This document shows, in pieces, positions 14,610-54,700 of a stretch of DNA of 64,000 nt. Origin of the DNA: a virus. Both the position numbers and the translations under genes were made by a program. The DNA lies in IMG/VR virus record IMGVR_UViG_3300020048_003770, positions 32,001 to 96,000 of that record, one strand, 5' to 3'. The notes under the pieces were generated by a model, which ran no database searches, was not told where the DNA came from, and saw only the letters and a list, made by a program, of their open reading frames with translations. Every line of letters starts with the position of its first letter. Within the stretch, counting starts at the first letter, position 1.

Positions 14610-14702
14610 ATGAATATGAACAAGCAAATAATAGGTATAGGAATAGCGGGAGCCTGCGGCGGAGCTGCAAGGCTACGGACTTTCTATGTCTGTTTATGCT
14701 AA
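14610..14702 (+). CDS. attenuator leader peptide MNMNKQIIGIGIAGACGGAARLRTFYVCLC
   Basis: short ORF after promoter motifs; its 3' part overlaps the antiterminator strand; codons 7-20 are 13/14 Ile/Gly/Ala. Confidence 0.7.
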   Translation: MNMNKQIIGIGIAGACGGAARLRTFYVCLC

Positions 14703-14765
14703 ATGATATAACAGATTAAAAAATAGAGAGTCCGATAAACTAATGGTTTGTCGGACTTTTGCTTT
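14676..14765 (+). promoter_or_regulatory. transcription attenuator 1 (antiterminator/terminator)
   Basis: cggactttcta(14676) pairs tagagagtccg(14724), and tctgtt pairs aacaga; mutually exclusive with terminator agagtccgataaac/gtttgtcggactttt plus T-rich tail. Confidence 0.75.
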
Positions 14766-15720: not shown

Positions 15721-15963
15721 ATGTTTAAATCATATAAGATCTTAAAAGAATGCAAATTAGAAGAGTCTAATTTGATTCAAATGTTGCGTGAAAATAAAGA
15801 AGGATTGACTATAGATAGGATTATGTTAATGGGTTTTGACAAATGGAACTCGCTTAACAAATTATTGGCTATGCAGAAGGTTAAAGGGATTAAACAAAAA
15901 AATGATCCTTTTGTTAAAGAGACTGTTATCGTTTCATGCGGGAGTAACTCACCAATCTTATGA
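15721..15963 (+). CDS. hypothetical protein
   Basis: ORF with AAGGA RBS; runs into the following tRNA-like gene. Confidence 0.5.
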   Translation: MFKSYKILKECKLEESNLIQMLRENKEGLTIDRIMLMGFDKWNSLNKLLAMQKVKGIKQKNDPFVKETVIVSCGSNSPIL

Positions 15964-16022
15964 ATTGGGCAGTATAATTAGAGTAATGGTGCATGTTGGT
16001 TCAAGTCCAATCTCCCGTACCA
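15938..16022 (+). tRNA. atypical tRNA-Ile(UAU)-like RNA (D-arm truncated, long variable region)
   Basis: acceptor gcgggag/ctcccgt plus ACCA; perfect anticodon arm ccaat-cttatga-attgg; T-arm ttgg-ttcaagt-ccaa. Confidence 0.6.
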
Positions 16023-26244: not shown

Positions 26245-26640
26245 ATGAAAATAGTAAAGACAGCATCAGGCAAACAAACAATAAAGATTTCCAAAAAAGA
26301 ATGGACATCTCTTGGTAAAAAAGCTGGTTGGATAAAAACGGCGACATCCAGTAGAGAAAAAGTGATGCATGATTTGAGATCTATCCTTGGCGATAAGGCT
26401 TTTATTAGACCAACTGAAGAATTTGATGGGACTCCAGACGGGATATGGTTCTCAAATGAAGAAGATGGTATTGACGGACTTCCAACATTTGATACCAATG
26501 GAGAAACGGAGATGCTCGCTAATTTCGGTATAGAAGCATATCCATATCAAGCTCACCCTAAACTCGAAGCTCTAATGAATAGTCATAATTGGTATATTGA
26601 ACCATATGACGGTGGAACATTAATGGCTTGGACAAGATAA
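26245..26640 (+). CDS. protein with conserved N-terminal KTASGK..EW..GKKAGW motif (paralog 1)
   Basis: shared ~33-aa N-terminus. Confidence 0.75.
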   Translation: MKIVKTASGKQTIKISKKEWTSLGKKAGWIKTATSSREKVMHDLRSILGDKAFIRPTEEFDGTPDGIWFSNEEDGIDGLPTFDTNGETEMLANFGIEAYPYQAHPKLEALMNSHNWYIEPYDGGTLMAWTR

Positions 26641-26655
26641 ATTCAAGGAGAATAT

Positions 26656-27174
26656 ATGAGAGTTACAAAAACAGCAAATAAATCAAAAATCACTTTGTCT
26701 CAAAAAGAATGGCAAAACATAGGTCAGAAAGCAGGATGGATGAAAACTGCTCAATTTGGTAGTGGAATGGAAACTGTCGAAATAGGTAGCACTCCAAACG
26801 ACGAACCATGCGCTCAAGTTGGATCAGATAACTATAGGCAACTAGCTCAAATGGAAATAAAAGCATTTGCAAAACAATGTCAAAGAATGTTCCCGAATAA
26901 GCCACAAGGTGCTAGATTCGTAGTAACTAATAACCCACACGATTTTGGTACTTATTATGAGTTAGGAGTAAAATTTAGAACGGATGATGAAGAAGCTGAA
27001 AATTATGCTTATGAAGTTCAAAATAGCATGCCTTCTAATTGGGATGATCAAGCGAGAGCAGAATTAGAACAACAAGGGTATTTTCAATTGTTAGATGGCA
27101 ATAAAGAAAATGATTCTGAGATGCCAGGTTTTGAAGGCACTAATGATTCTCTCAATAATTTAGGAATACGATAA
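26656..27174 (+). CDS. N-terminal-motif protein (paralog 2)
   Basis: MRVTKTANKSKITLSQKEWQNIGQKAGWMKTAQ; body has E.CAQVG..Y and PHDFGTYYE. Confidence 0.75.
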   Translation: MRVTKTANKSKITLSQKEWQNIGQKAGWMKTAQFGSGMETVEIGSTPNDEPCAQVGSDNYRQLAQMEIKAFAKQCQRMFPNKPQGARFVVTNNPHDFGTYYELGVKFRTDDEEAENYAYEVQNSMPSNWDDQARAELEQQGYFQLLDGNKENDSEMPGFEGTNDSLNNLGIR

Positions 27175-27176
27175 TT

Positions 27177-27719
27177 GTGAAAATAGTAAAAACAGCTAGT
27201 GGTAAGCAAAATATAAGATTGAGTAGAAGCGAATGGCAATCCATTGGAGAACGTGCTGGATGGATAAAAACAGCCAAACAGTATGAAGTCAGTTATTCTG
27301 TTGGTTTCTCCCCTGAAATAAAAAAGAAAACTGTTTTTGTCAATCCCTCCAAGCTTCCAGAAGGTGTTACAGAAAAAGATTTTATTGCTAAACAATTGAG
27401 CAAAAAAGAGGGGAAGAATGTAATTATAGTGAAATCAATACCGATAGGTTCTGTTAGTAAAAAGCATGGACCGAATGTAAAAGATTTGCAAAGGGCTCGT
27501 GGCGAAGAAATGAGGAAAGAACGCCAACGTATAAAAAACAGGGAAGACCATGAAAATTGGTTGAAACAGAAATTGAAAGAAAATGATTTGCCAGAAGATA
27601 TAGATGAGGAAAGAGCACTCCCATTGATTGAAGAATTCGAACAAGTTAAAGGATTGGGTGAAGAAGAAAAAGAACTTTCATTAATTGAACAATTGGAACG
27701 GAAAAAGAAAAACATATGA
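27177..27719 (+). CDS. N-terminal-motif protein (paralog 3)
   Basis: MKIVKTASGKQNIRLSRSEWQSIGERAGWIKTA. Confidence 0.75.
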   Translation: MKIVKTASGKQNIRLSRSEWQSIGERAGWIKTAKQYEVSYSVGFSPEIKKKTVFVNPSKLPEGVTEKDFIAKQLSKKEGKNVIIVKSIPIGSVSKKHGPNVKDLQRARGEEMRKERQRIKNREDHENWLKQKLKENDLPEDIDEERALPLIEEFEQVKGLGEEEKELSLIEQLERKKKNI

Positions 27720-28129
27720 AAATAACTAAAACAGCAAGCGGTAAACAAACGATTAAGATTTCCAAGAAAGAATGGGCAAGTATTGGTAAAAAAGCGGGTT
27801 GGTTGGATGGAGACGTTATGAAAGTTGTAAAAGAAGACATTCAGTATCAAGCCGCTCCATATGGTTATATCGCTACTATACCAAAAGGAACCGCCGTTGT
27901 ACCTGCATCTAATCTAGAGATGGGTGGATATTGGGCTGAAGAGTGGGATGGAATGGACGAAAAGGCAAGATCATGGTTGGATAATTATGGCTTTCATCTT
28001 TTAGAAAGCGATGTCGAAGATGTTGACGATACTTATCACTCAGAACCTAATCACCAAGATGTTTTAGATAGAAGAGCGGATGCAGAAGATGAGGCGGAAT
28101 ATAATAAATGGATGTCAGAACGAGGATAA
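27716..28129 (+). CDS. N-terminal-motif protein (paralog 4)
   Basis: MKITKTASGKQTIKISKKEWASIGKKAGW. Confidence 0.75.
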   Translation: MKITKTASGKQTIKISKKEWASIGKKAGWLDGDVMKVVKEDIQYQAAPYGYIATIPKGTAVVPASNLEMGGYWAEEWDGMDEKARSWLDNYGFHLLESDVEDVDDTYHSEPNHQDVLDRRADAEDEAEYNKWMSERG

Positions 28130-28209
28130 TTATTTAAAATAGTTCTTGATTTTAAAACAGAACAAGCCCTTGACATACTCCCCATGAATAAATTCAGGGG
28201 ATTCTAGGC

Positions 28210-29382
28210 TCAAGCGAGGGCAGCTTGACTCACGTCAAGTCTGACACCCTCTCGCCAGCAGGATGATGTCCCATCCTTTAAATCATTTAAACCTCTCTTA
28301 ACTATATTTATAGCTGCGTTCATATCTCTATTATGAGAAGTCAAACACTCAGGACAAACCCACTCTCTATCTTTTTGAGTTAATTCATTGTTCTTATATC
28401 CACAGGAACTGCATGTTTTCGTACTGGCAAACCATTTATCAATATGGTGAATAATTTTTCCATATTCCAAAGCTTTATTTTCCAATATTCCCATGAAATT
28501 AGAAAATCCAAGATCATTTATCTTCTTCCCATGTTCTTTTTTCATTGAACTGATATCCAAAGTTTCAAAAAACATAACATCATAAGTTTCACATAATTGT
28601 TTTGCAAGTTTGAAATGATAATCTAATCTTTTATTTGCAACTTTCTTATGTAATTTAGCCAATTGATGTTTTGCTTGTTGGTAATTATTTGAACCTTCAG
28701 TCTTTCTTGATAATGTCTTGTTCGCTTTGGATATCTTGTTTCTATTTTGTTTGAAAAATAGTGGAGCTTTTATTTTGGTTCCATCATCTTTAACTAGAAA
28801 ATCCGTACATCCGAAATCAAAGCCTGCGGTTTCACCCGTCATGGAAATTAATTCAGAATCATTTTCTAATTCGCAAACAATATAAACATACCAATCCTCT
28901 GATTTATCTTTTTTAAGTGTAATGCATTTTATTTCTCCTTTTGTTTCTCTTGATTTCCAGTATTTGTAAATTCTGTTATTTATTTTGATTTGGTTGAACG
29001 GCAATATTTTGTATCCATCTTGTTTGAAGGTAATGCTTGCATAGGATCTAACTTTTTTGAATGATGGAGGGCTTACTTTTCTAGTTTTGTTTTTCTTTTT
29101 GCAATTATCAAAGAATGCCTTGTATCCTTTTTGGATTCTATCTGTAATTTCTTGAATAGCTTGAGCGTTTACTTTTTTCCAGAATGAATATTTTTCTAAT
29201 TTTTTCAGTTTTGTGATATGTTTTTGGAGTTGAAATTTATTGAGGGATTTTCCGAATAGTTTGTAATATCTATAGTGGAGAGCGATGCAGTGGTTATAGA
29301 TATTGCCTGCTATTTTGGTTTGTTCATTCAGGAATTTGTTTTTCTTTGAATGATATAATTTATATTTGAATGTCTTTATCAT
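28210..29382 (-). CDS. tnpB: RNA-guided endonuclease TnpB
   Basis: KTFKYKLY HTH start; RuvC GFDFG / FFETLD / RDMNAAINI; zinc ribbon CSSCG..CPEC. Confidence 0.95.
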   Translation of the reverse strand: MIKTFKYKLYHSKKNKFLNEQTKIAGNIYNHCIALHYRYYKLFGKSLNKFQLQKHITKLKKLEKYSFWKKVNAQAIQEITDRIQKGYKAFFDNCKKKNKTRKVSPPSFKKVRSYASITFKQDGYKILPFNQIKINNRIYKYWKSRETKGEIKCITLKKDKSEDWYVYIVCELENDSELISMTGETAGFDFGCTDFLVKDDGTKIKAPLFFKQNRNKISKANKTLSRKTEGSNNYQQAKHQLAKLHKKVANKRLDYHFKLAKQLCETYDVMFFETLDISSMKKEHGKKINDLGFSNFMGILENKALEYGKIIHHIDKWFASTKTCSSCGYKNNELTQKDREWVCPECLTSHNRDMNAAINIVKRGLNDLKDGTSSCWREGVRLDVSQAALA

Positions 29383-29539
29383 TATCTTTTAGAACCTTGA
29401 GGTATTTTTTCAGGAACATTTTAAATGCGCCTGAAATATTTATGGCGTAATTATTTTTAAGTTCTTCCATGGCGTCGAAGTCTTCTTGATTTAATCTGAA
29501 GGCATATGGGTATTGTTTTTTAACATAATTATTTTTCAT
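29360..29539 (-). CDS. small ribbon-helix-helix-like DNA-binding protein (59 aa, not in ORF track)
   Basis: MKNNYVKKQYPYAFRLNQEDFDAMEELKNNYAINISGAFKMFLKKYL..; overlaps the tnpB start. Confidence 0.6.
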   Translation of the reverse strand: MKNNYVKKQYPYAFRLNQEDFDAMEELKNNYAINISGAFKMFLKKYLKVLKDNDKDIQI

Positions 29540-29682
29540 GTTTATTTATTCAATACTTTTCAAATAATTCCTTTATTTGTAAATGAGAAAATAATTTAAA
29601 ATAGTTCTTGATTATTAAAAGGAGTTATGTATAATGATTAGGAACATTAAATAGATTCGAGATTTGGAGAAGGAATAAAATT

Positions 29683-29760
29683 ATGTATATTAAAACGAAA
29701 ACAGTAGAAAAAGCAACGGTATTCAAAAAAACCGTTATGGGCTTATTCTGTTTTGTTTAA
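29683..29760 (+). CDS. attenuator leader peptide MYIKTKTVEKATVFKKTVMGLFCFV
   Basis: AAGGA RBS after a TTGATT-N17-TATAAT promoter; codons 4-18 are 12/15 Lys/Thr/Val. Confidence 0.75.
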   Translation: MYIKTKTVEKATVFKKTVMGLFCFV

Positions 29761-29810
29761 GTACAAAATAGATTTTTAAAAGCCCGTAAGTGTTACTTGC
29801 GGGCTTTTTT
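29739..29810 (+). promoter_or_regulatory. transcription attenuator 2 (antiterminator/terminator)
   Basis: gggctt..tctgttttgt pairs acaaaataga..aagccc; mutually exclusive with terminator aaaagcccgtaag/cttgcgggctttttt. Confidence 0.8.
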
Positions 29811-29847
29811 GTTTTATTTAATGGTAATTTGGGGGATAGAATAAAAT

Positions 29848-29922
29848 GGAAGTGTAGTTCAACGGTAGAACAACGGTCTTTTAAACCGTGAAATGATGGT
29901 TCGATTCCATCCACTTCTACCA
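29848..29922 (+). tRNA. tRNA-Lys(UUU)
   Basis: acggt-cttttaa-accgt; cloverleaf; CCA. Confidence 0.92.
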
Positions 29923-29964
29923 TTTTTAAAGGAAACGATAAGAAGGAATATGATATAATATAAT

Positions 29965-30038
29965 GGGCGATTAGTTCAATGGTAGAACTCTGTCTTTACA
30001 CGGCAGTTACGGGAGTTCGATTCTCTCATCGCCTACCA
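29965..30038 (+). tRNA. tRNA-Val(UAC)
   Basis: ctgtc-tttacac-ggcag; CCA. Confidence 0.92.
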
Positions 30039-30062
30039 TTTTAAAAAAGAAAGGGAGTTGTA

Positions 30063-30242
30063 ATGAAAATATTAAATGTAGATACTAAGATCCACGAAGC
30101 GATAGGAATGACTATATTGACGAAAGAAGATGTCGCTAGCAGAAGATTGGGAGAACCTATGGAGATATGGCCGAAAGACTGTTCATTTAATCCATCGGGA
30201 ATCTCTTTGGAAGAAGCTAGAGGAGCAATGAGGAAAATGTAA
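30063..30242 (+). CDS. small hypothetical protein (59 aa)
   Basis: GGGAG RBS; MKILNVDTKIHEAIG.. Confidence 0.45.
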   Translation: MKILNVDTKIHEAIGMTILTKEDVASRRLGEPMEIWPKDCSFNPSGISLEEARGAMRKM

Positions 30243-30297
30243 AGAACATAGAGGGGAGAAGGTTGTAGTTGAAGAAATTAAAACATTATTTAAAAAC

Positions 30298-30373
30298 GCC
30301 GGTTTAGCTCAGTTGGTAGAGCAATAGTTTTGTAAACTATAGGTCGTCGGATCGTACCCGTCAACCGGCTCCA
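30298..30373 (+). tRNA. tRNA-Thr(UGU)
   Basis: atagt-tttgtaa-actat; CCA. Confidence 0.92.
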
Positions 30374-30382
30374 TTTTTTAAT

Positions 30383-30458
30383 GCCACCATAGCTCAGTTG
30401 GTAGAGCAATAGTTTCGTAAACTTTAGGTCGCAGGTTCGATGCTTGCTGGTGGCTCCA
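30383..30458 (+). tRNA. tRNA-Thr(CGU)
   Basis: anticodon loop ttcgtaa; gccacca/tggtggc; CCA. Confidence 0.9.
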
Positions 30459-30497
30459 TAAAAGAAAATAACCGTATAAGATAAAAGATTTTAAAAC

Positions 30498-31264
30498 GAT
30501 GGTATGGCGGAAAATGGTTATGCGCCTTACTTATTTTTATATTTATAAAGGATTTTTATTTTGTTTATAGAATAAATATTTATGAATGAAATAAAAATAG
30601 AAAATATTCAAAAATATTATAATGACGGACATTCTTGGAGAGAAGTAATTGAAGAATTCCATACGGGCTGGAAAACGATACAGAAACTAGTTAGAAGTGG
30701 GAAGTTGATTTCTAGAAGTTTATCTGAGAGTACTAAGCTGGCATATAAAATTGGGAAAATAGTAAAAGTGCATACAGAAGAAAGTAAGAAGCATCTATCG
30801 GCAATTGCAAAGAAAAGGGGATTGGGTGGCGATAGACCGAGTAAGCATATTGAATATAACGGCTTTAAATTATGTTCGACATATGAATTGAGAGTTGCAA
30901 AAATTTTAGATAAAAGTGAAATAAAATGGATAAAACCAAAAACTACGTTTGGGTGGACTGATTTAAATAACGAAAAACACACATACCATCCGGACTTTTT
31001 TTTGCCGGATTTTAATGTCTATTTAGATCCGAAAAACAGTTATTGCATAGAAAGAGATAAAGAAAAAATTAAAAGGGTTAGAATGGAGAATATGGTTAGC
31101 GTTTTTATTATTCCGATAGAAGTTATAAAAAAATGGGAAAATAAAATAATAATAAGCATACAAGATATAAATCAAGATACGGAAGGTTTGTAGTTCTAAG
31201 GTGAAGGACATATGTCAAAATTTGTAATAAGAACTATGGGGTTTCGATACCTCTGCCGGCTCCA
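30498..31264 (+). pseudogene. tRNA-like gene split at the anticodon loop by an endonuclease ORF
   Basis: 5' half gatggtatggcggaaaatggttatgcgccttactt; 3' half gatacggaagg..ggggtttcgatacctctgccggctcca. Confidence 0.55.
30582..31193 (+). CDS. putative homing endonuclease (NUMOD3-like plus PD-(D/E)xK)
   Basis: HTEESKKHLS; STYELRVA..YHPDFFL..YLDPKN. Confidence 0.75.
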   Translation: MNEIKIENIQKYYNDGHSWREVIEEFHTGWKTIQKLVRSGKLISRSLSESTKLAYKIGKIVKVHTEESKKHLSAIAKKRGLGGDRPSKHIEYNGFKLCSTYELRVAKILDKSEIKWIKPKTTFGWTDLNNEKHTYHPDFFLPDFNVYLDPKNSYCIERDKEKIKRVRMENMVSVFIIPIEVIKKWENKIIISIQDINQDTEGL

Positions 31265-31270
31265 TTTTTT

Positions 31271-31390
31271 GCCAAAGATGCTTAGGAGTTCGATTCTCCT
31301 TCGTTCCATTTGACGGGACGGATGGTTCACAAAGTGCTACGGTGACACGGTTCGCTACTGTATCGGGTTCGATTCCCGACTTTGGCTCCA
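31271..31390 (+). ncRNA. atypical 120-nt tRNA-like RNA with two T-loop hairpins
   Basis: gccaaag/ctttggc plus UCCA; aggag-ttcgatt-ctcct and tcggg-ttcgatt-cccga. Confidence 0.6.
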
Positions 31391-31406
31391 TTTTTAGAGG
31401 AATGAT

Positions 31407-31580
31407 ATGAATATAAAAAACGAGATAGAACTTGATGCCGCCCTTGAACACATAAATGATAATTGGCATTTATTAGATATTCCAGATGATGCCGATTCTG
31501 AATTGGTTACTAAACGCGATAATCTTCTTAAATTAATTTATGATGCTGAAGAGTACGAGAAGAAATATGTTTTTGATTAA
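31407..31580 (+). CDS. small helical protein resembling the HigA antitoxin N-terminal domain (57 aa)
   Basis: IKNEIELDAALEHI..RDNLLKLIYDAEEYEKKY; GAGG RBS. Confidence 0.4.
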   Translation: MNIKNEIELDAALEHINDNWHLLDIPDDADSELVTKRDNLLKLIYDAEEYEKKYVFD

Positions 31581-31591
31581 TATAAGTGCAT

Positions 31592-31666
31592 GGATTGCAA
31601 GCTTTTATGGTGAAGCAATAGATTCTTAATCTTTGGAACGGGGTTCAAGTCCCTGGAGATCTACCA
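31592..31666 (+). tRNA. tRNA-Lys(CUU)
   Basis: anticodon loop ttcttaa; T-arm cgggg-ttcaagt-ccctg; CCA; imperfect stems. Confidence 0.8.
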
Positions 31667-31740
31667 ATTTTTATCTTGATTTTCTATTCCTCTTATTGTA
31701 TAATATAACATCGATTAGAATAATTATGGAAAGGGAAATT

Positions 31741-32016
31741 ATGGAATTAAAATGTTTTGAAGATATTGATGAAATGATGACGATACCAGCAGGGCATTTT
31801 GTAAACCATGTTGATTTAGATTGTGATACTCCATATTGTCAAGTGTGTCGAGAAAGTGACATGAAAGATTTTGACGATAAGATATTCGTTCCGAAAGCAC
31901 TGGCGTATTATTTGCGGACTCATTTTTGTGGAAGTGAAAGAATGCATAAATCTCTTAAGGAAGACGGAAGAAGATCTTGTCAGAATGAAATAAAAGAAGC
32001 ATTAGGAATAAAATAG
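31741..32016 (+). CDS. hypothetical protein
   Basis: ORF after a sigma70-type promoter. Confidence 0.55.
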   Translation: MELKCFEDIDEMMTIPAGHFVNHVDLDCDTPYCQVCRESDMKDFDDKIFVPKALAYYLRTHFCGSERMHKSLKEDGRRSCQNEIKEALGIK

Positions 32017-32026
32017 AAGGTAAATC

Positions 32027-32812
32027 ATGAAATTAAAATTTTTAGGAGTTGGTGGAGCTTTTTGTGATTCAAATCAGTATCAGTCTAATTGTGCGATTGA
32101 AATAGATGATAAATTGTTTTTAATTGATTGTGGGTCGGATATTAGATTCTCTTTGAAAGAACAATATCCACTTATAAATAATGGCAATATTTCTGATTAT
32201 GTTAAGTGGGTTTATATTTCTCATTTGCATGGAGATCATTGTCACGGATTGGAATGGTTAGGATATTGTACTTACTTTAATCCATCAGCCAGTAAGCCTA
32301 TTCTAATTGGAGATAGTAATGTCATTCATTCGTTATGGGATTATACACTGAAAGGTACAATGGGCGATGTAAAAGGTAAAGAGTTAAAGTTGAATGATTT
32401 CTTTGAGATTATGGATTCTGATTGTTCAAATCGAAATCTTATGATTGGGGATAAAGAGCAAATGTTATTGACGTTAGTTGAATCTCCTCATGTTGATCCT
32501 TATAAAAAGTCATTTGGATTATTTATTGAGACCCCACGCAGAAAAACGTATTATACTTCCGATGTCAATGATTCTAATATGGTTGTCAATAAAAAATATT
32601 ATGAACATGCGGATATTATATTTCATGATTGCGAGACATACAAGTTTCATTCAGGCGTTCATGCTCATTATGAATCGCTTAAAAATTTGCCATATAATAT
32701 AAAGGAGAAAATTTGGTTGTATCATTACAGTGACGATGCGATAGATAAATATGATCCGGTTTTTGATGGGTTTAGTGGATTTTGCAAGAAAGGGGATTGG
32801 TTTCAGATATGA
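32027..32812 (+). CDS. MBL-fold metallo-hydrolase, Apyc1/RNase Z-like
   Basis: FLGVGGAF, LIDCG, SHLHGDH, LWDYTLKG, YTSD, FHDC, VHA..L, LYHYSD. Confidence 0.85.
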   Translation: MKLKFLGVGGAFCDSNQYQSNCAIEIDDKLFLIDCGSDIRFSLKEQYPLINNGNISDYVKWVYISHLHGDHCHGLEWLGYCTYFNPSASKPILIGDSNVIHSLWDYTLKGTMGDVKGKELKLNDFFEIMDSDCSNRNLMIGDKEQMLLTLVESPHVDPYKKSFGLFIETPRRKTYYTSDVNDSNMVVNKKYYEHADIIFHDCETYKFHSGVHAHYESLKNLPYNIKEKIWLYHYSDDAIDKYDPVFDGFSGFCKKGDWFQI

Positions 32813-33147
32813 ATGGTTTATGGAAAAACCAATATGAAGTTTCATGGTGTGGGCTTTGCGAGGTAGCTTCAATAGTTTGTCCTGTTTGCAAAGCTACATC
32901 TTGTAATGGGACTTCTTGTTCGGTTTGCCATGAAGATTTCAGTGAGTTTTGTTCCTCAGTTAGTTATTGTTATGAAGATTATTGTTCAGACAAAGAAATT
33001 AACGCTTATAATAAAGTGAGAAGAATTCAATCATTAATTGTCAGTTCAATCCAAATGGGTGATGATAAAATAAATTGGGAACATATGGAAGAGCAAGGGC
33101 GGCTTTGCGAAAATGACCGTGAAATATTCAATCTAAAATCAGAGTAA
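32809..33147 (+). CDS. Cys-rich hypothetical protein
   Basis: several CxxC motifs. Confidence 0.55.
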   Translation: MNGLWKNQYEVSWCGLCEVASIVCPVCKATSCNGTSCSVCHEDFSEFCSSVSYCYEDYCSDKEINAYNKVRRIQSLIVSSIQMGDDKINWEHMEEQGRLCENDREIFNLKSE

Positions 33148-33151
33148 TGAA

Positions 33152-33484
33152 ATGAAAAACAAAATAATTAATGATCATATGAAATGGGCGAAAGATAATG
33201 GATTTTGTACACAATGTATTCATCCATGGTTTGATGGTCTATGTAGTTGCGGGAATTATGCGAAATATGCCAACAGAATAGATGCAATAACTATATTGGC
33301 TTTGGAAGAGCTTGATGAAGATTGGGATAAGAAAAGGCAAAAATATAATGAGCAAATAAAAAAACGTATGAAAATTGTAAAAAAGAAAACCGTGGATAAT
33401 CCCAAATGGATGACTAAGCTGAAAGATTATATGATGAGTAAAATGATTGAAAATATTTGTAAGGAAGATTACAATGCAAATTAA
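33152..33484 (+). CDS. hypothetical protein
   Basis: ORF track. Confidence 0.5.
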   Translation: MKNKIINDHMKWAKDNGFCTQCIHPWFDGLCSCGNYAKYANRIDAITILALEELDEDWDKKRQKYNEQIKKRMKIVKKKTVDNPKWMTKLKDYMMSKMIENICKEDYNAN

Positions 33485-34091
33485 GTTAGAAAATGATAAA
33501 ACAATTCATATTTGTTTAGGAGACATTACTAGAGTCGCTGCTGTAGATGTCATAGTTAACGCTGCACATAGAGCTTTACTTGGCGGTGGAGGGGTAGATG
33601 GAGCAATTCATAGGGCGGCTGGAGAAGAGCTTTTAATGGAATGTAGAGATATTCCATGCGATAAAAATGGAGTTAGATGCAAAACTGGAGAAGCTCATAT
33701 AACAAAAGGATATAATCTTCCTGCAAAATATGTAATCCACACTGTTGCTCCTATTTTTGTAGGTGGAATAATCAGAAGGAATATTGATGGAGTAATGACG
33801 CCAATTTTTAATAACGTTAGCCCAGAAGACGGTAATTTGCAAATGGCTGAATGTTATAAGAATTGTATTGAGTTGGCAGAGACGCACAGTCTTAAGTCTA
33901 TAGCGTTTCCTTCATTGGGTACTGGAGGTCATGCTTATCCGATAGAGATTGCATGTCCAATTGCTATAAAAACGGTTATTGAAGCTCTTAAAAATACAAA
34001 ATCTGTTAAAGATGTTGTATTTGTTTGTTTCAGTTCTGAGGATTGGGAATTTTATGAGGAAACGGCAACTGGAATAATGAAGACTAACTGA
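33474..34091 (+). CDS. macrodomain ADP-ribose hydrolase (YmdB/MacroD-like)
   Basis: GDIT, IVNAAH..LLGGGGVDGAIHRAAG, VIHTVAP, SIAFPSLGTG. Confidence 0.92.
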   Translation: MQIKLENDKTIHICLGDITRVAAVDVIVNAAHRALLGGGGVDGAIHRAAGEELLMECRDIPCDKNGVRCKTGEAHITKGYNLPAKYVIHTVAPIFVGGIIRRNIDGVMTPIFNNVSPEDGNLQMAECYKNCIELAETHSLKSIAFPSLGTGGHAYPIEIACPIAIKTVIEALKNTKSVKDVVFVCFSSEDWEFYEETATGIMKTN

Positions 34092-38200: not shown

Positions 38201-39487
38201 TCAAACGCTTTCTCTTTCAAGATCACGTCTGAAGGATAAATTGATATTTGGTTTATACTTCACCCCAAATATCAATGGAAGCGTCATTCTTCCTATTACG
38301 TCCAAACTATAAAGCCCAAACGATACTTGCGATGCACTTTCATTAATATATAAATTGTATATGTTAATAGCACCAACTCCATCCCTGTCAAAAACAAATC
38401 CACATTTATCACATTTGAAAACTCTTCCTTTCGGAGAAGATTCCTTAATATGATTGCAACTAGGACATGTTCTCGATGTGTTGTATTCTGGAATAATTTC
38501 ACATTTCCCACCAACACTCTCAAATTTATACCTGATATATTCCTTTAACTTCTGTTCAGGATTTTGCGTTATTTTCTGGTTATTCGCTTTCCCTAAATTC
38601 GTATCCTTGTGAGTACTTGAATTATTTCCAATAACAATTGTATTTATATTGTTTCCAATAGCATCATTGACAATTCTTCTTGCATATTTATGAAGAATAT
38701 CTTTTTCTTTGTTCTTTATCTTTTTCACATTACTTCTATATGCTCTTTTAAGATATTTCCTTCGTCTTGATTCCTTCCCGGCATTTGCATATTTGGATTG
38801 AGTTTTTGCCAATAATTTATTCCTCAATTTTCCTAATGCAAGAAACTCCTTACCTGAATATGTGTTTATTGCGTCAGGAGTGCATGTTGTGGCAATCCTT
38901 TTAACTCCTAAATCAATTGACATTACTTCTTCTGATTTGTTTATGGTATTTTGGAGTTTTGTATTGCAAACCATATTGATTTTCCAACCAGTGAAACAAT
39001 CATAGGAAATCGTTATGTATTTCGGAATTGGAAGATCGTCGCCCCACTTTATCTTGATTGGTTCAAATGGTTTCTTGACCGACAACAATAAATACCCATT
39101 TCGTCTTCTAATCGCTTCCTCTTTGAATATAACAGATCTAAGATATTTTTCCTTATGTGGAGGTTTTGGTTGTCCTGTGAAATTAGATGGGTTTGCCTTA
39201 TATGCTTTTAATGCTTTCGTGAAATTTTTGAAATCGTTTATGTACGCTTCATAAGATCCTTGCAATGATTGGGCGATTAGGAATTTTGGTTTATAAGTAT
39301 TGTAAATGGTTTTCCCAATAGCCTTGAAATCATTTCCTTCCGAATGAAGTTTCATAGCCATATTATATATCTCAGATGATTCATGGGACATATCGAATAT
39401 AAATGCGTTTGGTTTGTATGTCTGTGAATATGTTCTTGTATCATATTCCTTGACATTATCTATTTTTATATTGTCTTTTTTATACAT
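38201..39487 (-). CDS. tnpB: TnpB RNA-guided endonuclease
   Basis: SIDLGV, EYNTSRTCPSC..CDKC, DRDGVGAINI. Confidence 0.9.
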   Translation of the reverse strand: MYKKDNIKIDNVKEYDTRTYSQTYKPNAFIFDMSHESSEIYNMAMKLHSEGNDFKAIGKTIYNTYKPKFLIAQSLQGSYEAYINDFKNFTKALKAYKANPSNFTGQPKPPHKEKYLRSVIFKEEAIRRRNGYLLLSVKKPFEPIKIKWGDDLPIPKYITISYDCFTGWKINMVCNTKLQNTINKSEEVMSIDLGVKRIATTCTPDAINTYSGKEFLALGKLRNKLLAKTQSKYANAGKESRRRKYLKRAYRSNVKKIKNKEKDILHKYARRIVNDAIGNNINTIVIGNNSSTHKDTNLGKANNQKITQNPEQKLKEYIRYKFESVGGKCEIIPEYNTSRTCPSCNHIKESSPKGRVFKCDKCGFVFDRDGVGAINIYNLYINESASQVSFGLYSLDVIGRMTLPLIFGVKYKPNINLSFRRDLERESV

Positions 39488-39893
39488 TTTTCTGATCTTC
39501 TATATATTTCTTGACTATTTCCAATGATACGCTTCCAACGGTTGATATGAATTTTGATCTTGTCCATAACGTGGGGAGTCTGGATTTCAAATATGGGAAT
39601 TCCGATCTAAGTGTATTTGAAGTATATCCTTTGATTTTTGCGATTTGATTATTAATTCCTAGTTTTGGGTTGCAATCAATTAAGAGGTGAACGTGGTCTG
39701 GCATGATTTCTATTTCTATTATTTTGTATTGATATTCTGTTTGTTTTTCTAGGATAAGTTCTTTGAGTCGTTTTGCGATATTTTCGTCGAGGACTTTTCT
39801 TCTATATTTTGGGCAGAAGATAACGTGATATTGACATGAGTATACGGAGTTGCAGTCTTTGTTATATTCTTTATGGTTATTTACCAGTTCCAT
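39480..39893 (-). CDS. tnpA: Y1 transposase TnpA (IS200/IS605)
   Basis: YHVIFCPKYRR, MPDHVHLL (HUH), LWTRS, KKYIEDQ. Confidence 0.95.
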   Translation of the reverse strand: MELVNNHKEYNKDCNSVYSCQYHVIFCPKYRRKVLDENIAKRLKELILEKQTEYQYKIIEIEIMPDHVHLLIDCNPKLGINNQIAKIKGYTSNTLRSEFPYLKSRLPTLWTRSKFISTVGSVSLEIVKKYIEDQKNV

Positions 39894-40840: not shown

Positions 40841-41133
40841 GTGAAAATACTGCAAGGATATATACAATTACTGGTATAACTAAAGATTTCCCAAAAGGAC
40901 GGGTTAGAAATTTTGGGTGGTTTCCATTTTTTGAAGAAGCGGAATCTGCGGTTTTGAATAATAGTTGCGGTATGGACGAAGGTGGATTTTATTCAACTAT
41001 TGTAATTGAAGAATGCGAAAGTGGAGTATACGTTATCGGAAATTATGAAACATCAAATGAATGGGATGGCGAAAAATATAATAAGTCGGAAAAACCATTA
41101 CGGTGTAAAGGTATTGTGAATTTTAGTTTTTGA
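40837..41133 (+). CDS. hypothetical protein
   Basis: ORF track. Confidence 0.5.
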   Translation: MSENTARIYTITGITKDFPKGRVRNFGWFPFFEEAESAVLNNSCGMDEGGFYSTIVIEECESGVYVIGNYETSNEWDGEKYNKSEKPLRCKGIVNFSF

Positions 41134-41150
41134 TTCTTTTAAGGAGCGAT

Positions 41151-41939
41151 ATGATTGGTTCTATAATTGGAGATGTTGTTGGAAGTTGTTTTGAATTTGA
41201 TAATACGGACGATCCTAATTTTGAATTATTTAGCGAAACAAGTACATTCACAGATGATACAGTTCTCACGGTAGCTACAGCAGATGTCATACGATTTGGT
41301 GGCAATTTCCTTGAAGAGTATCAAAAAGCTTTCAACAACTATCCTAATCGGGGTTGGGGAGGTATGTTTCTTTCTATTGCGTCAAAAGGAGAATTAGCGC
41401 CTTATAACAGCTTTGGGAATGGTTCTGCTATGCGAGTTTCTCCTGTTGGATGGGTTTGTGATAATATAAATGATACAATGGACTTGGCGAAGGAAACATC
41501 TATTGTAACCCATGATCATCCTGAAGGTGTAAAGGGCGCTCAAGCAGTAGCTATTGCGATTTATTTGGCTAGGAATGGCTATAATAAAAAATATATAATT
41601 GATGCTGTTAGTGAACTTGGTTATGATTTATCTAAGCCTTTAAATGAGTTTGATCATTCTTTTGATGTCACATGTCAAGGTACTATTCCTATATGTATGG
41701 CTTTATTTAATGAGACTAAAGATTTTGAAGAAGCGATACGTGTAACTGTTGCTCAGGGCGGAGATTGTGATACGAACGCTTGTATAGTTGGAGGTATTGC
41801 GGAAGCGTTTTATGGAATGCCACCAAAATATATGATTGAAGAAACACTTAATAGGCTTCCCGTTGAAATGCAGTTCACAGTTTGTAAATTTGTTGAGAAA
41901 TTTTGTTATAATAGTTTTGAAGATATGTTCATAAGATAA
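41151..41939 (+). CDS. ADP-ribosylglycohydrolase (DraG/ARH family)
   Basis: GSIIGDVVGS, FTDDT, SFGNGSAMRVSP, THDHPEG, GGDCDT. Confidence 0.92.
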   Translation: MIGSIIGDVVGSCFEFDNTDDPNFELFSETSTFTDDTVLTVATADVIRFGGNFLEEYQKAFNNYPNRGWGGMFLSIASKGELAPYNSFGNGSAMRVSPVGWVCDNINDTMDLAKETSIVTHDHPEGVKGAQAVAIAIYLARNGYNKKYIIDAVSELGYDLSKPLNEFDHSFDVTCQGTIPICMALFNETKDFEEAIRVTVAQGGDCDTNACIVGGIAEAFYGMPPKYMIEETLNRLPVEMQFTVCKFVEKFCYNSFEDMFIR

Positions 41940-43816: not shown

Positions 43817-44047
43817 ATGGCAGAGGGATTTATAGAAAAAATTGTAATTGAGGATGAATGGACTAGTGGCGGTGAACAGTTTAGGTTGATTGATGTTGGT
43901 GCCGGTCCAATGCGTTTGCAGGTTCTCAAAGATGGAGAGTGGGTTAAAGAAAGCGAACATTATGAGTGGGGAGTTTTAACCCATAGGATTAAGTCACTTG
44001 CGGCAATTACAAACAATTTTATTAGCGACGGAGGAGACGTTTTCTAA
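43817..44047 (+). CDS. hypothetical protein
   Basis: GGAGG RBS; promoter upstream. Confidence 0.55.
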   Translation: MAEGFIEKIVIEDEWTSGGEQFRLIDVGAGPMRLQVLKDGEWVKESEHYEWGVLTHRIKSLAAITNNFISDGGDVF

Positions 44048-44069
44048 AAAGACATTTGAAAGGGGAATT

Positions 44070-44975
44070 ATGGGCGACAAGTTAAAAGAAATAAGTAAAA
44101 TGCTATCGTTGGTTCTAAGGCATGATCCGAAGAAGATTGGCATAGAATTAGACAATAATGGGTGGACAAGTGTTGACAATTTGATCACAAAGGTTAATCT
44201 ATCTTTTAATGGTCGATACTTTATTACAAAAGATATACTTGACGAAATCGTTAGAACAAACAACAAGAAGCGTTTCGAGTATAGTTCTGATGGGTCAATG
44301 ATTAGGGCAAGACAGGGACATTCTGTTTCTGTTGATTTGGGCTATAAACCAGTTACTCCTCCAGAGGTCTTATATCATGGAACGTCCGAAGATGTCGTTG
44401 ATTCTATTTTCGAGAATGGAATTGAAAAACGAAGTCGTCACCATGTCCATCTTTCGGAAAATCATGAAACCGCTATGGCTGTAGGTAAGAGACATGGAAA
44501 GCCTTGTGCATTGACGATAGATTGCAAGAGTATGGTCGCGGATGGATATGAATTTTTCAAGACGGATAACGGAGTCTGGTTAGTAGATCATGTTCCGTCT
44601 ATTTATATCTACTCTGAATTACGATTTAAGTCAAAATCTAAGCAAAGCAACGAAAGAATTCAAAGTTATTTTAACGAAACAGAATCTGAAATTGAAAAAA
44701 AATTAGAAAAAGATGATGGCATAAGCAGGTATAGGTTCGAACAAAATCCTGCTGAAAGAATTTTCGTTGAAGAATTTATGGAACAAGATAAGTGGAGTAA
44801 TACTTTGGAATATATATTGTCCAGCTATTCTAATATAAGACAAGATGTAACAGATGAACAAAGAGCTGTTGCAATGACGATTATTCAGTGGATGGGTTCT
44901 CCTTGTGGTCAATCGTTCCTTCAAGTAGTTGCAGAAAGATGTAAAAAAGAAGGATGTAAGTTGCGAGGTTTTTAA
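44070..44975 (+). CDS. kptA: RNA 2'-phosphotransferase (Tpt1/KptA) fused to an extra C-terminal domain
   Basis: SKMLSLVLRH, NKKRFE, IRARQGHS, LYHGT, RHHVHLS, NGVWL. Confidence 0.92.
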   Translation: MGDKLKEISKMLSLVLRHDPKKIGIELDNNGWTSVDNLITKVNLSFNGRYFITKDILDEIVRTNNKKRFEYSSDGSMIRARQGHSVSVDLGYKPVTPPEVLYHGTSEDVVDSIFENGIEKRSRHHVHLSENHETAMAVGKRHGKPCALTIDCKSMVADGYEFFKTDNGVWLVDHVPSIYIYSELRFKSKSKQSNERIQSYFNETESEIEKKLEKDDGISRYRFEQNPAERIFVEEFMEQDKWSNTLEYILSSYSNIRQDVTDEQRAVAMTIIQWMGSPCGQSFLQVVAERCKKEGCKLRGF

Positions 44976-45313: not shown

Positions 45314-45673
45314 GGGAGCGCTAGGAATCGATTGGCGTTTGAAAAAGTATTATTGCATGCAGAAGATCATGGCTGGCTTCTATAAATATCCATGAAAAAC
45401 AAGTAAACGGCGAAAGTCTTAAACTTGCTGCCTAATTAAAGGTAGCCAGAAACGGAGCAAGATAGTCTTGGTAGCTCTTAGTACTGTTGATTACAAGGCG
45501 GCGATTTGATTAAGCCTAATGGTCATGGCAAGAACGGGAAGACGTTCTGCGACTCATAATAAGCAATGAGAAGGTTTCTTTTGTTGAGCCTTTTAAATCA
45601 GCACAACAAGCATGTGAAGAAGTAATATCGTTTCTCGCACAACACGGGAGTTCGACTCTCCCCGCTTCCACCA
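45314..45673 (+). ncRNA. ssrA: tmRNA; tag (A)GESLKLAA at 45409-45435
   Basis: gggagcg/cgcttcc with G3:U70 plus ACCA; gcatgc/gcatgt helix; T-loop ttcgact; tag ORF ending LAA-stop. Confidence 0.92.
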
Positions 45674-51792: not shown

Positions 51793-54700
51793 ATGATTGA
51801 ATTTACTGGCGAAAAATATGTTAATCTGCACAACCATTCATATTATAGCGCATTAGATGGATTATCTTCTCCTGAGGATATGGTTGATGCCTGTATCGCT
51901 AATGGTTCAAGAGCTTTGGCAATTACAGACCATGGAACTTGTGGCGGATGGTATAATTTTCAAAAAGTATGTCTAGCTAAAGGTGTAAAACCTATACTTG
52001 GCAATGAAGTATATATTTCTCCAGACCACACTTCTGTAGACCCTAAAGACCCACGTTATCATCTAGTTCTTTTAGCTAAGAATCATTTAGGTGTTCAGAA
52101 CCTCATGGAACTATCAACTATCGCAGAAACAAAAGGTAAATATAAGAAGCCGCGTATTGACTTTAAATTATTACAAGCTCATCACGAAGGGCTAATATGC
52201 ATGAGTGCTTGTTGCATTGGAGAATTGCCGTCTAAGCTATGGCAGGGGGATAATGATGGCGCTGTCAAGATGGCTAATGAATATAAGGATTTATTTGGCG
52301 ACGATTACTATATTGAAATCATGATGCATAAATACAATCAGAATGCACAAGAACAAGAAAAAAGAGAAAAAGTTCTTGCTAAACAATTGTATTCATTAGC
52401 GAAGAAACTGAATATAAAAACGGTTTGCAGTAACGACGCTCATTACGCTAATCGGTCAGATGCACCTTATCATGACGTTATGTTGTCAATGCAAACTCAT
52501 GATCATATTAAAAATCCAGATCGTTTTACATTCAACGGAGAACAGTTCTATTTGAGACCATATGAAGAGATGTATGATTTATATAAGAGTGCGCCTGAAA
52601 TGTTACTTCATACTGTTGAAATAGCGGAGAAGATAGAGAGTGATGCGATATTGTTGCCTTCAAAAGATTTGCTTCCGATATTTAATGTTCCGCAAGGGGT
52701 TACTAGTGAAACTGCTTATTTAAAGGAATTAGTTAAAGAGGGTATGAAGTTACATGGTTTCATTAACGATCCAATATATAGAGAACGTATAAAGATGGAA
52801 ATGGAACTTATTGTAAGATGCGGATTCGTGCGATATTTCTTAACTTTGTGGGATATTATAAATTATGCGAAACAACAAGGGGTTCGCACCGGAATTGGTC
52901 GCGGAAGCGGAGCGGGTAGTTTGTGTTTGTATTGTTTAGGAATCACGAAACTAGATCCGATTAAGTATGGTTTATTGTTTGAACGATTCATTAATCCGGA
53001 ACGTGTAAGTCCGCCAGATGTAGATATTGACTTTGATTATTCCCGTAGAGATGAGATATTTGACTATATCATCAGAAAATATGGGACTGATTATTGTTGT
53101 AAAATTGGCACATACAATACGTTTAAAGCTAAGGGGGCGATTAGATACGCAGCCAAAGCATTAGACATAGGCAATGATTGGGAAACATATCAAGCTGCCA
53201 AGAAACGAAATCCAAATGCAAAAATAGAAATGACCAAGAAGAGTCTGGATTTGGCTGATTTTATCGCTAAACAGATTCCAGAGGTTCCAGGTACAACAAT
53301 CGAATCAGCTTTGAAAGATGATGAATCGTTCCGTAGTGCTATGCAGAAATATCCTAAGCTTTTAGATGCAGTAAGACATGTTGAGAACACTGTATCTTCT
53401 GCTGGCGTTCATCCTGCTGGTATTATTATCTGCAAAGACCCTATTGCCAAACATATCCCCTTACGTGAATCTAAGGGTGCGATATGTTCTCAATTCGTAA
53501 TGTCTGAGGTAGATGAGTTGGGATTGCTTAAATTGGATATGCTTGCTCTAAAGACATTGACGGTTATTGAAGATACTGTCCAAATGATTAAAAAGCGATA
53601 TGGAATTGATATTGACATTGACAATTTAGATCCAACAGACAAAAATGTTTTTAAGTTGTTTAATGGCGGATATAAAAATATGGACAATAGGGGTATATTC
53701 CAATTTGAAGCGCATGGCATTTCTAAACTATTAAAAAGTATTAGAGTGGATACGTTCAATGATTTGGTTGTTTGCAACGCCCTCTATCGTCCTGGTCCTT
53801 TGGGCGCAGGAGTTCATGAGTTATATAGCGACTACAAGCATGGTCGTAAAAAGATTGAATATTTGCATCCAAAGATGGGAGAGGTGCTAAAAGATACCTA
53901 TGGGATTATGTGTTTTTCAAAGGATCAAATAGTTTATACAAATAATGGTCCAAAATGTATTGAAGAAATATGCAAGCAACCGGTGTATTGCTTGGACAAT
54001 GGTAAATTAAACAAATATCCTTCTGTTAATGGGGCGTTTAAAAGTGGAGTGCGAGAAATTTTCGAATATACGTTGTCGAATGGAGCTATTATAAAAAGCA
54101 CTAACGACCATCCAATTTTTAATGGAGAAAATTATATTGCTATGGATGAAATATTTTATAAAAAATTACCTATCCATTATACGTTGGGGAATATAAAGGA
54201 TTCAACCGAGAATGAAAAAATGGAGAAGAAAGCTTATTTATGGGGGGCTTTAATCGGCGACGGGACTACGAAGCCTTCAACTCCTATATTGTGTGTTGGT
54301 AAAAATAAAAGTTATGGCGAAATGGTAATAAACTTATTTTCCGATGTATATGGGGAGGACGGTGACGCAAATTTGTTTTATTCTACAAGATCTTGGTATG
54401 TAAGATTTTCTTTTAAAAGTAATTCTTGCAAATGGGGAACGAATAAAACTAATCAATTAAAGAATGAACTTGAATCTATGAATTTAAGGTGTTTGTCCAT
54501 TGATAAATTTTTGCCGTTTGACAGTCTTAAACCAAATCGTCGAATCTATTTATCGTTGTTGGCAGGGCTTGTAGACACTGACGGCAGTATACAAAAAGAT
54601 ATTTATTATTCATCGTCAAGTAAACAGTTGTTAATTGATGTTGAATATGTTTTATGGAGGCTTGGATATACGACATACAGAAGTCATCATATGGTTCATG

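Follow-up and report, generated by a model that had tools for sequence, protein, structure and literature searches.

A predicted leader-peptide attenuator ahead of a phage tRNA operon, with four parallel cassettes elsewhere in the genome

Results

A leader rich in Lys, Thr and Val codons precedes a terminator and the matching tRNA genes

The window analyzed here, 64,000 nucleotides (nt) in length, comprises bases 32001-96000 of the 161,288-bp IMG/VR record IMGVR_UViG_3300020048_003770, a phage sequence of about 34% G+C with an estimated completeness of 87%. In this window a short open reading frame (ORF) dominated by Lys, Thr and Val codons is followed by an intrinsic terminator and then by genes for tRNA-Lys, Val, Thr and Thr. 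We propose that this element, named cassette E, is a ribosome-mediated (leader-peptide) transcription attenuator of the trp/thr style, which would gate the phage tRNA operon in a feedback on tRNA supply; we put the probability of this reading at about 0.8. The original prediction of a leader-peptide attenuator carrying the codons of the tRNAs it gates was thus supported in silico, both by five parallel cassettes in the genome and by conservation in related phages. The features of cassette E are as follows, in window coordinates.

29598-29635, plus strand: sigma-70-type promoter-like sequence with upstream motif AAAATAGTTC, -35 element TTGATT (29608-29613), 16-nt spacer and -10 element TATAAT (29630-29635)
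29666-29674, plus strand: Shine-Dalgarno-like site GGAGAAGGA, read from the sequence, 8 nt upstream of the ATG
29683-29760, plus strand: leader ORF MYIKTKTVEKATVFKKTVMGLFCFV, 25 codons plus TAA, ATG at 29683
29692-29736, plus strand: putative sensor run, codons 4-18, of which 12 of 15 encode Lys, Thr or Val
29711-29744, plus strand: predicted region 1:2 hairpin (anti-antiterminator), AAGC and AACGGT with ACCGTT and GCTT, from the minimum free energy (MFE) fold
29734-29745, plus strand: region 2, 5' strand of the predicted antiterminator, GTTATGGGCTTA, complementary to the 5' arm of the terminator
29747-29772, plus strand: predicted inner hairpin of the antiterminator (29747-29756 with 29763-29772), TAA 29758-29760 in the loop, from constrained folds and pair counts
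29778-29815, plus strand: intrinsic terminator with a 14-bp stem; region 3 (29778-29791), loop, region 4 (29795-29808), T tract
29848-29922, plus strand: tRNA-Lys(UUU), ARAGORN; Rfam tRNA 73.1 bits
29965-30038, plus strand: tRNA-Val(UAC), ARAGORN and Rfam
30063-30242, plus strand: 59-aa ORF between the tRNA genes, no Pfam family
30298-30373, plus strand: tRNA-Thr(UGU), ARAGORN and Rfam
30383-30458, plus strand: tRNA-Thr(CGU), ARAGORN and Rfam; absent from the relatives examined
31592-31666, plus strand: tRNA-Lys(CUU), with the next promoter at 31676-31704

Promoter, ribosome-binding site, leader, terminator and four tRNA genes were all present in the order and at the positions predicted, and the count of 12 Lys, Thr and Val codons among codons 4-18 (AAA ACG AAA ACA GTA GAA AAA GCA ACG GTA TTC AAA AAA ACC GTT) was exact. 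The promoter matched 10 of 12 positions in a promoter scan, and it was conserved together with its upstream motif in the relatives, which also kept the Shine-Dalgarno-like site as GAAAGGA or GAGAAGGA. The terminator hairpin alone had a folding energy of -19.5 kcal/mol, and 29778-29808 was the sole terminator-like site within 28500-32000. Since no terminator-like site separates it from cassette E and the next promoter comes only afterwards, tRNA-Lys(CUU) is possibly the last gene of this transcription unit. The 59-aa ORF is presumably co-transcribed with the tRNAs; a homologous ORF lies 3' of tRNA-Val in the relative L026.

Five parallel cassettes pair each leader with its own tRNA set

The genome carries five plus-strand cassettes with one layout, namely a promoter, an ORF of 25-30 codons, a strong terminator and tRNA genes, and their sequences are unrelated. 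They are listed below; cassette coordinates are in genome numbering, from which the window position is obtained by subtracting 32000.

Cassette A, genome 7797-7889, plus strand: leader ..INQQNNQQNQN.., then tRNA-Asn, Gln and Asn
Cassette B, genome 18755-18844, plus strand: leader ..IHIPEHIEIPEPI.., then tRNA-His, Ile(GAU), Glu and Pro
Cassette C, genome 26108-26191, plus strand: leader ..FSFFSF.., then tRNA-Phe
Cassette D, genome 46610-46702 (window 14610-14702), plus strand: leader MNMNKQIIGIGIAGACGGAARLRTFYVCLC, run ..IIGIGIAGACGGAA..
Cassette D, window 14727-14759: terminator
Cassette D, window 15203 and 15627: tRNA-Ala(UGC) and tRNA-Gly(UCC), respectively
Cassette D, window 15938-16019: tRNA-like RNA with anticodon loop CTTATGA (UAU) and a long variable region, Rfam tRNA 31.1 bits
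Cassette E: leader run KTKTVEKATVFKKTV, then tRNA-Lys, Val, Thr and Thr

Promoters of the class AAAATAGTTCTTGAYT...TAtAAT precede cassettes B, D and E, and TTGATT-16-TATAAT precedes cassette A. In each of the five leaders, the amino acids of the tRNAs in that cassette were over-represented. The true pairing of leaders with tRNA sets was the unique maximum among 120 permutations, with 57 amino-acid matches against a mean of 23.8, and the codon-level score was 48 against a permutation mean of 17.8. As a background we used the 774 other ATG-initiated ORFs of 20-40 aa in all six frames of the genome. Among the 775 short ORFs, leaders A, B, D and E each ranked as the most extreme for the tRNA set of their cassette, and leader C (Phe) was weaker (p ~0.06-0.1). 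None of the 774 other ORFs equalled the Lys/Thr/Val count of leader E in a window of 13 or 15 codons. The Ile codons divided according to the anticodon available: leader D has four, all ATA, in keeping with its UAU tRNA, and the run of leader B has five, each ATC or ATT, in keeping with its GAU tRNA. The joint chance of this split was about 0.002 at a genomic ATA usage of 0.36. Matching at the level of codons held for Ile only.

The leaders contain the complement of their own terminators

In cassette E the duplex between region 2 and the 5' arm of the terminator (29734-29745 with 29780-29791) was computed with RNAduplex at -14.7 kcal/mol (z = -4.6), an energy reached in 1 of 200 shuffles. It had been predicted that positions 29739-29756 of the leader pair with the terminator. 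Pairing of the 3' part of the leader with the 5' arm stood, but the segment had to be moved to 29734-29745, and 29747-29756 belongs to the inner hairpin instead. The same complement to the 5' arm was found in the 3' part of the leader in all five cassettes (-11.4 to -18.4 kcal/mol), and eight other strong terminators of the genome, taken as controls, gave -4.0 to -11.3 kcal/mol, a full separation (Mann-Whitney p = 0.0008). An energy-difference measure for the antiterminator split cassettes from controls less cleanly than this direct duplex measure. When the 3' arm of the terminator was blocked, each cassette folded as a long antiterminator enclosing a small hairpin with the stop codon, which lies 17-24 nt 5' of the terminator arm in all five.

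The region 1:2 hairpin predicted in the MFE fold of cassette E overlaps the sensor codons and would partly sequester region 2 in free RNA; in the relatives a different helix is predicted at this place, GTAGTC/GACTGCTAC plus CCGT/ACGG. Across homologues of the E family, 98.6% of cells were paired in the terminator, with two compensatory pairs; in the antiterminator the figure was 96% across five homologues. In an MFE simulation of ribosome masking the terminator was always the thermodynamic winner once its 3' arm existed, a result that is uninformative on kinetics. The choice between terminator and antiterminator would therefore be a kinetic one, and the kinetic steps of the model given below are to be read as inferred.

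Relatives conserve leader composition rather than leader sequence

Relatives were metagenomic contigs reached via homologues of two neighbouring proteins. No close relative was found by DNA in the cultured-phage collection, and IMG/VR searches with the metallo-beta-lactamase (MBL) protein described below, the terminator sequence, RecA and the E-leader pattern yielded none either. A topoisomerase-like 673-aa protein used as query matched only unrelated or contaminated records, and a metagenome pattern scan for E-type leaders added a single near-identical variant. One close relative lies on a 367,912-bp contig, and the phage is therefore probably a giant phage. A phage-encoded LpxR lipid A deacylase (L002:11984-12955) points to a Gram-negative host.

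An E-type leader was found as MYYKTKTVKTVKVVKTTATGLFCFV in L013, L014 and L026, as MYIKTKTVKTVKVVKTTATGLLCFV in L015, and as MYYKTKTVKTVKVVKTTATGFFCF in L022, where the neighbouring protein is just 57% identical. Each precedes Val, Thr and Lys tRNAs, in variable order, and frame and length of the leader were preserved in L013, L014, L015 and L022. The nucleotides in the middle of the leader differ widely from those of this genome, yet the Lys, Thr and Val residues are kept (EKATVFKKTVM versus KTVKVVKTTAT). Such change of sequence at constant Lys/Thr/Val content points to selection on leader composition rather than on sequence. A correlation between leader and tRNA content at homologous loci had been set beforehand as a test, and it held for amino-acid composition.

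The other cassettes were conserved in a similar manner. B-type leaders retained Ile, His, Pro and Glu in four relatives, and C-type leaders retained the Phe run in L009, L010 and L012, with only two Phe codons in the more distant L024. A-type leader MKVLFNQNNQQNNSSFT was found 5' of Asn, Gln and Asn tRNAs in a more distant phage. Where the terminator had been replaced by an unrelated one (cassette B in L010, A in L017, B and C in L024), its upstream complement had changed too (z = -2.0 to -4.5). In the 368-kb relative L008 (9640-10000), the Phe leader and most of tRNA-Phe were deleted and the intervening terminator was retained. A TnpB gene is inserted directly beside this retained terminator.

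Neighbouring genes and elements

A TnpB gene lies just upstream of cassette E on the opposite strand. On either side of the TnpB element (window 28125-29619) lies a directly repeated 33-nt copy of the promoter-upstream motif of the cassette, at 28125-28157 and 29587-29619, the two being 88% identical. Of the 16 nt that follow ...GTCAA on the minus strand (28169-28154, GGGCTTGTTCTGTTTT), 15 match the leader's region 2 and inner hairpin (29739-29754). Judged from these matches, the TnpB element may have sat in an E-type attenuator or may be guided to one; the flanks of the TnpB element of L008 held no similar attenuator match. A second IS200/IS605 element, with TnpA(Y1) and TnpB, occupies window 38201-39893.

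Upstream of cassette E, four tandem genes (window 26245-28129) encode proteins with a common N-terminal stretch of about 33 residues, MKIVKTASGKQ.IK.SKKEW..IG.KAGW..., but with unrelated C-termini; this family is also found upstream of the E cassette in relatives. Downstream of the four clustered tRNA genes, window 31190-31395 contains three elements that end in a T-arm, an acceptor 3' strand and a CCA-like tail (for example GGGTTCGATTCCCGACTTTGGCTCCA). Neither ARAGORN nor Rfam called them as tRNAs, and they may represent tRNA-like RNAs in split or permuted form.

Farther 3' of the tRNA operon (window 32027-34091 and 41130-41939) are genes for an MBL-fold protein, a macro-domain protein and an ADP-ribosylglycohydrolase. 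The MBL-fold protein matches the anti-Pycsar protein Apyc1 and is labelled as ribonuclease BN in Joint Genome Institute records. Together these genes look like a counter-defence or RNA-processing island. A transfer-messenger RNA (tmRNA; window 45314-45673, Rfam 66 bits) lies directly 3' of a gene for a Tpt1/KptA RNA 2'-phosphotransferase (43998-44975), and an Rnl1-like RNA ligase is encoded at L006:5170-6366. A DnaE-type polymerase (window 51793-55905) is interrupted by an intein with a LAGLIDADG domain.

Discussion

From the anatomy, statistics and conservation observed above we infer translation of the leader, stalling, read-through and a cause that depletes tRNAs. Host RNA polymerase would start at the sigma-70-type promoter and transcribe the 25-codon leader. 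With fast decoding of Lys, Thr and Val codons, the ribosome would trail the polymerase through region 2 up to the stop codon, which lies in the loop of the inner hairpin of the antiterminator, 17 nt 5' of the terminator. A ribosome at this position would melt region 2 and the inner hairpin and leave regions 3 and 4 free to pair, so that transcription would end ahead of the tRNA genes. If the matching aminoacyl-tRNAs were scarce, the ribosome would stall on the early Lys, Thr and Val codons, open the 1:2 hairpin and free region 2. Region 2 could then capture region 3, no terminator would form, and tRNA-Lys, Val, Thr and Thr would be transcribed. The new tRNAs would speed translation of the leader and shut the operon again, closing a negative-feedback loop of tRNA supply. 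Cassette E would be one of five such parallel cassettes, each tuned to its own tRNA set.

Several observations weigh against this model. Covariation in the E family is weak: the antiterminator is near-invariant, showing a single compensatory pair and mismatches in two cells, and its structural support therefore rests on the parallel, non-homologous cassettes. Given the computed helices and a footprint of about -15/+13 nt for the ribosome, stalling would spare region 2 only at about codons 4-12, the first nine of the sensor run. The leader of this genome is also less pure than those of the relatives, its run being broken by Glu, Ala, Phe and Met. Contrary to the exact codon-level match first claimed, relatives that lack tRNA-Thr(CGU) still carry two ACG codons in the leader, and an additional tRNA-Glu(CUC) has no counterpart in GAG codons. 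Cassettes A and E have good Shine-Dalgarno sites, those of B and D are weak, and C has none. Some phage tRNAs, such as Leu(UAA), have no visible leader. Finally, a -10-like hexamer (TAGAAT; TATAAT in L015) lies 6 nt 5' of tRNA-Lys, and by its sequence it could give some basal, attenuator-independent transcription of the tRNAs.

The event that would lower tRNA supply can be read in two ways, both compatible with the cassette. Nearly all phage tRNAs carry U34 in the anticodon and decode codons ending in A, which the A+T-rich genome favours; this fits a demand-driven supply. Alternatively, the five cassettes might form an inducible counter-defence, in which leaders sense the loss of host tRNA groups to anticodon nucleases or infection-induced decay and induce replacement tRNAs, alongside the RNA-repair genes for the Rnl1-like ligase, the Tpt1/KptA 2'-phosphotransferase and tmRNA. 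These genes, together with the macro-domain, ADP-ribosylglycohydrolase and Apyc1-like genes, fit a setting of RNA damage and counter-defence. We hold the counter-defence role to be possible, with the odds clearly against it, and tRNA cleavage of the PrrC or PARIS type as its trigger is conjecture.

The attenuator may be real and respond not to the supply of specific tRNAs but to the overall state of translation or to a shortage of amino acids; it would then serve a block of early genes, the tRNAs among them, as a timer or stress switch. Attenuators such as trp, his and thr respond to aminoacyl-tRNA levels, which are set by charging as well as by tRNA abundance, and the presence of protein ORFs in several cassettes would fit such a switch. 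Yet the five leaders differ, each drawing on the amino acids of the tRNAs in its own cassette, a specificity without purpose for a general timer, and extra tRNA would not relieve amino-acid starvation. We consider this explanation unlikely.

Less likely again is a switch that works without the ribosome, with a tRNA (T-box-like) or a protein (TRAP- or PyrR-like) binding the codon-rich RNA and the ORF being incidental. The terminator and antiterminator can alternate without translation, and the weak or missing Shine-Dalgarno sites of cassettes B-D would agree with this. However, the codon runs are in frame with an ATG and a stop codon 17-24 nt before the terminator in all cassettes and in the relatives, and the leaders vary in sequence while keeping their amino-acid composition. 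Moreover, Rfam detected no T-box or other riboswitch family; for the T-box there was no match at E <= 10 in 29600-29860, nor at E <= 1 in 28000-32500. Least credible of all is an independent small gene or small RNA with its own terminator, followed by tRNAs with their own promoters and with Lys, Thr and Val as an A-rich by-product: the 34% G+C, Lys as the commonest residue of the genome and the weak hexamer ahead of tRNA-Lys would allow it, but the composition match recurs in five unrelated cassettes, including the non-A-rich Ile/His/Pro/Glu and Ile/Gly/Ala sets, no other short ORF of the genome attains the leader scores, the antiterminator complement is specific to the cassettes, and the gap from terminator to first tRNA, 8 nt in the Phe cassette and 17 nt in L013, leaves no room for a separate promoter.

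If leader-peptide attenuation is correct, the cassettes would be direct, self-correcting sensors of tRNA supply, phage tRNAs would be made on demand rather than constitutively, and classical attenuation would extend to tRNAs themselves. The leaders would reveal which codons the phage treats as limiting. As compact, portable cassettes reporting the availability of specific tRNAs, they could serve as biosensors, and as their promoters and terminators are ordinary bacterial ones, they can be tested without the host. Genes for tRNAs are common in large phages and have been proposed to compensate for codon usage, to replace host tRNAs that are degraded, or to evade anticodon nucleases; to our knowledge, why large phages carry them and how they are regulated are still open questions.

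Comparison with known systems

Leader-peptide attenuation is a known mechanism, and its application to tRNA genes is new as far as the literature was searched: no description of leader-peptide control of tRNA genes was found in the full-text literature, a coverage outside which subscription journals fall. In textbooks, classical attenuation is confined to the metabolism of amino acids and pyrimidines and to one synthetase operon. The Escherichia coli tRNA-Phe genes pheU and pheV were rejected as a precedent, as in K-12 both have only a promoter immediately upstream, with no leader ORF and no terminator. Membership in the curated Rfam leader families was likewise rejected. The alignments were driven by the terminator and scored below the gathering thresholds (Thr_leader 28.2 versus 55 bits, His_leader 26.8 versus 49, Trp_leader 17.9 versus 41), and no Rfam leader family reached threshold in the first 96 kb.

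T-boxes resemble the phage cassettes in that the state of a specific tRNA sets the choice between terminator and antiterminator and in that they control translation-related genes. They differ in needing no ribosome, as uncharged tRNA is bound by the RNA itself, and in their conserved specifier loop and T-box sequence. Closest in function is pheM, whose leader attenuation controls pheST (phenylalanyl-tRNA synthetase) by aminoacyl-tRNA supply; it differs in controlling a synthetase rather than a tRNA, in responding to a single amino acid, and in being a host gene.

In their design the phage cassettes are closest to thrL (Thr/Ile), ilvL of ilvGMEDA (Ile/Leu/Val), trpL, hisL, pheL and leuL, with which they share a promoter, a leader with regulatory codons, the 1:2, 2:3 and 3:4 hairpins and a terminator, a geometry reproduced in silico for the phage. 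As in the phage, the thrL and ilvL leaders are multivalent and carry codons for more than one amino acid. The stop codon lies in the antiterminator loop in the phage, whereas in the enterobacterial attenuators it lies between regions 1 and 2. The phage has five parallel cassettes, which have no sequence homology to the enterobacterial leaders. Whereas the enterobacterial attenuators gate biosynthetic enzymes, the phage cassettes would gate tRNAs, so that the product would act directly on the sensor in a short loop.

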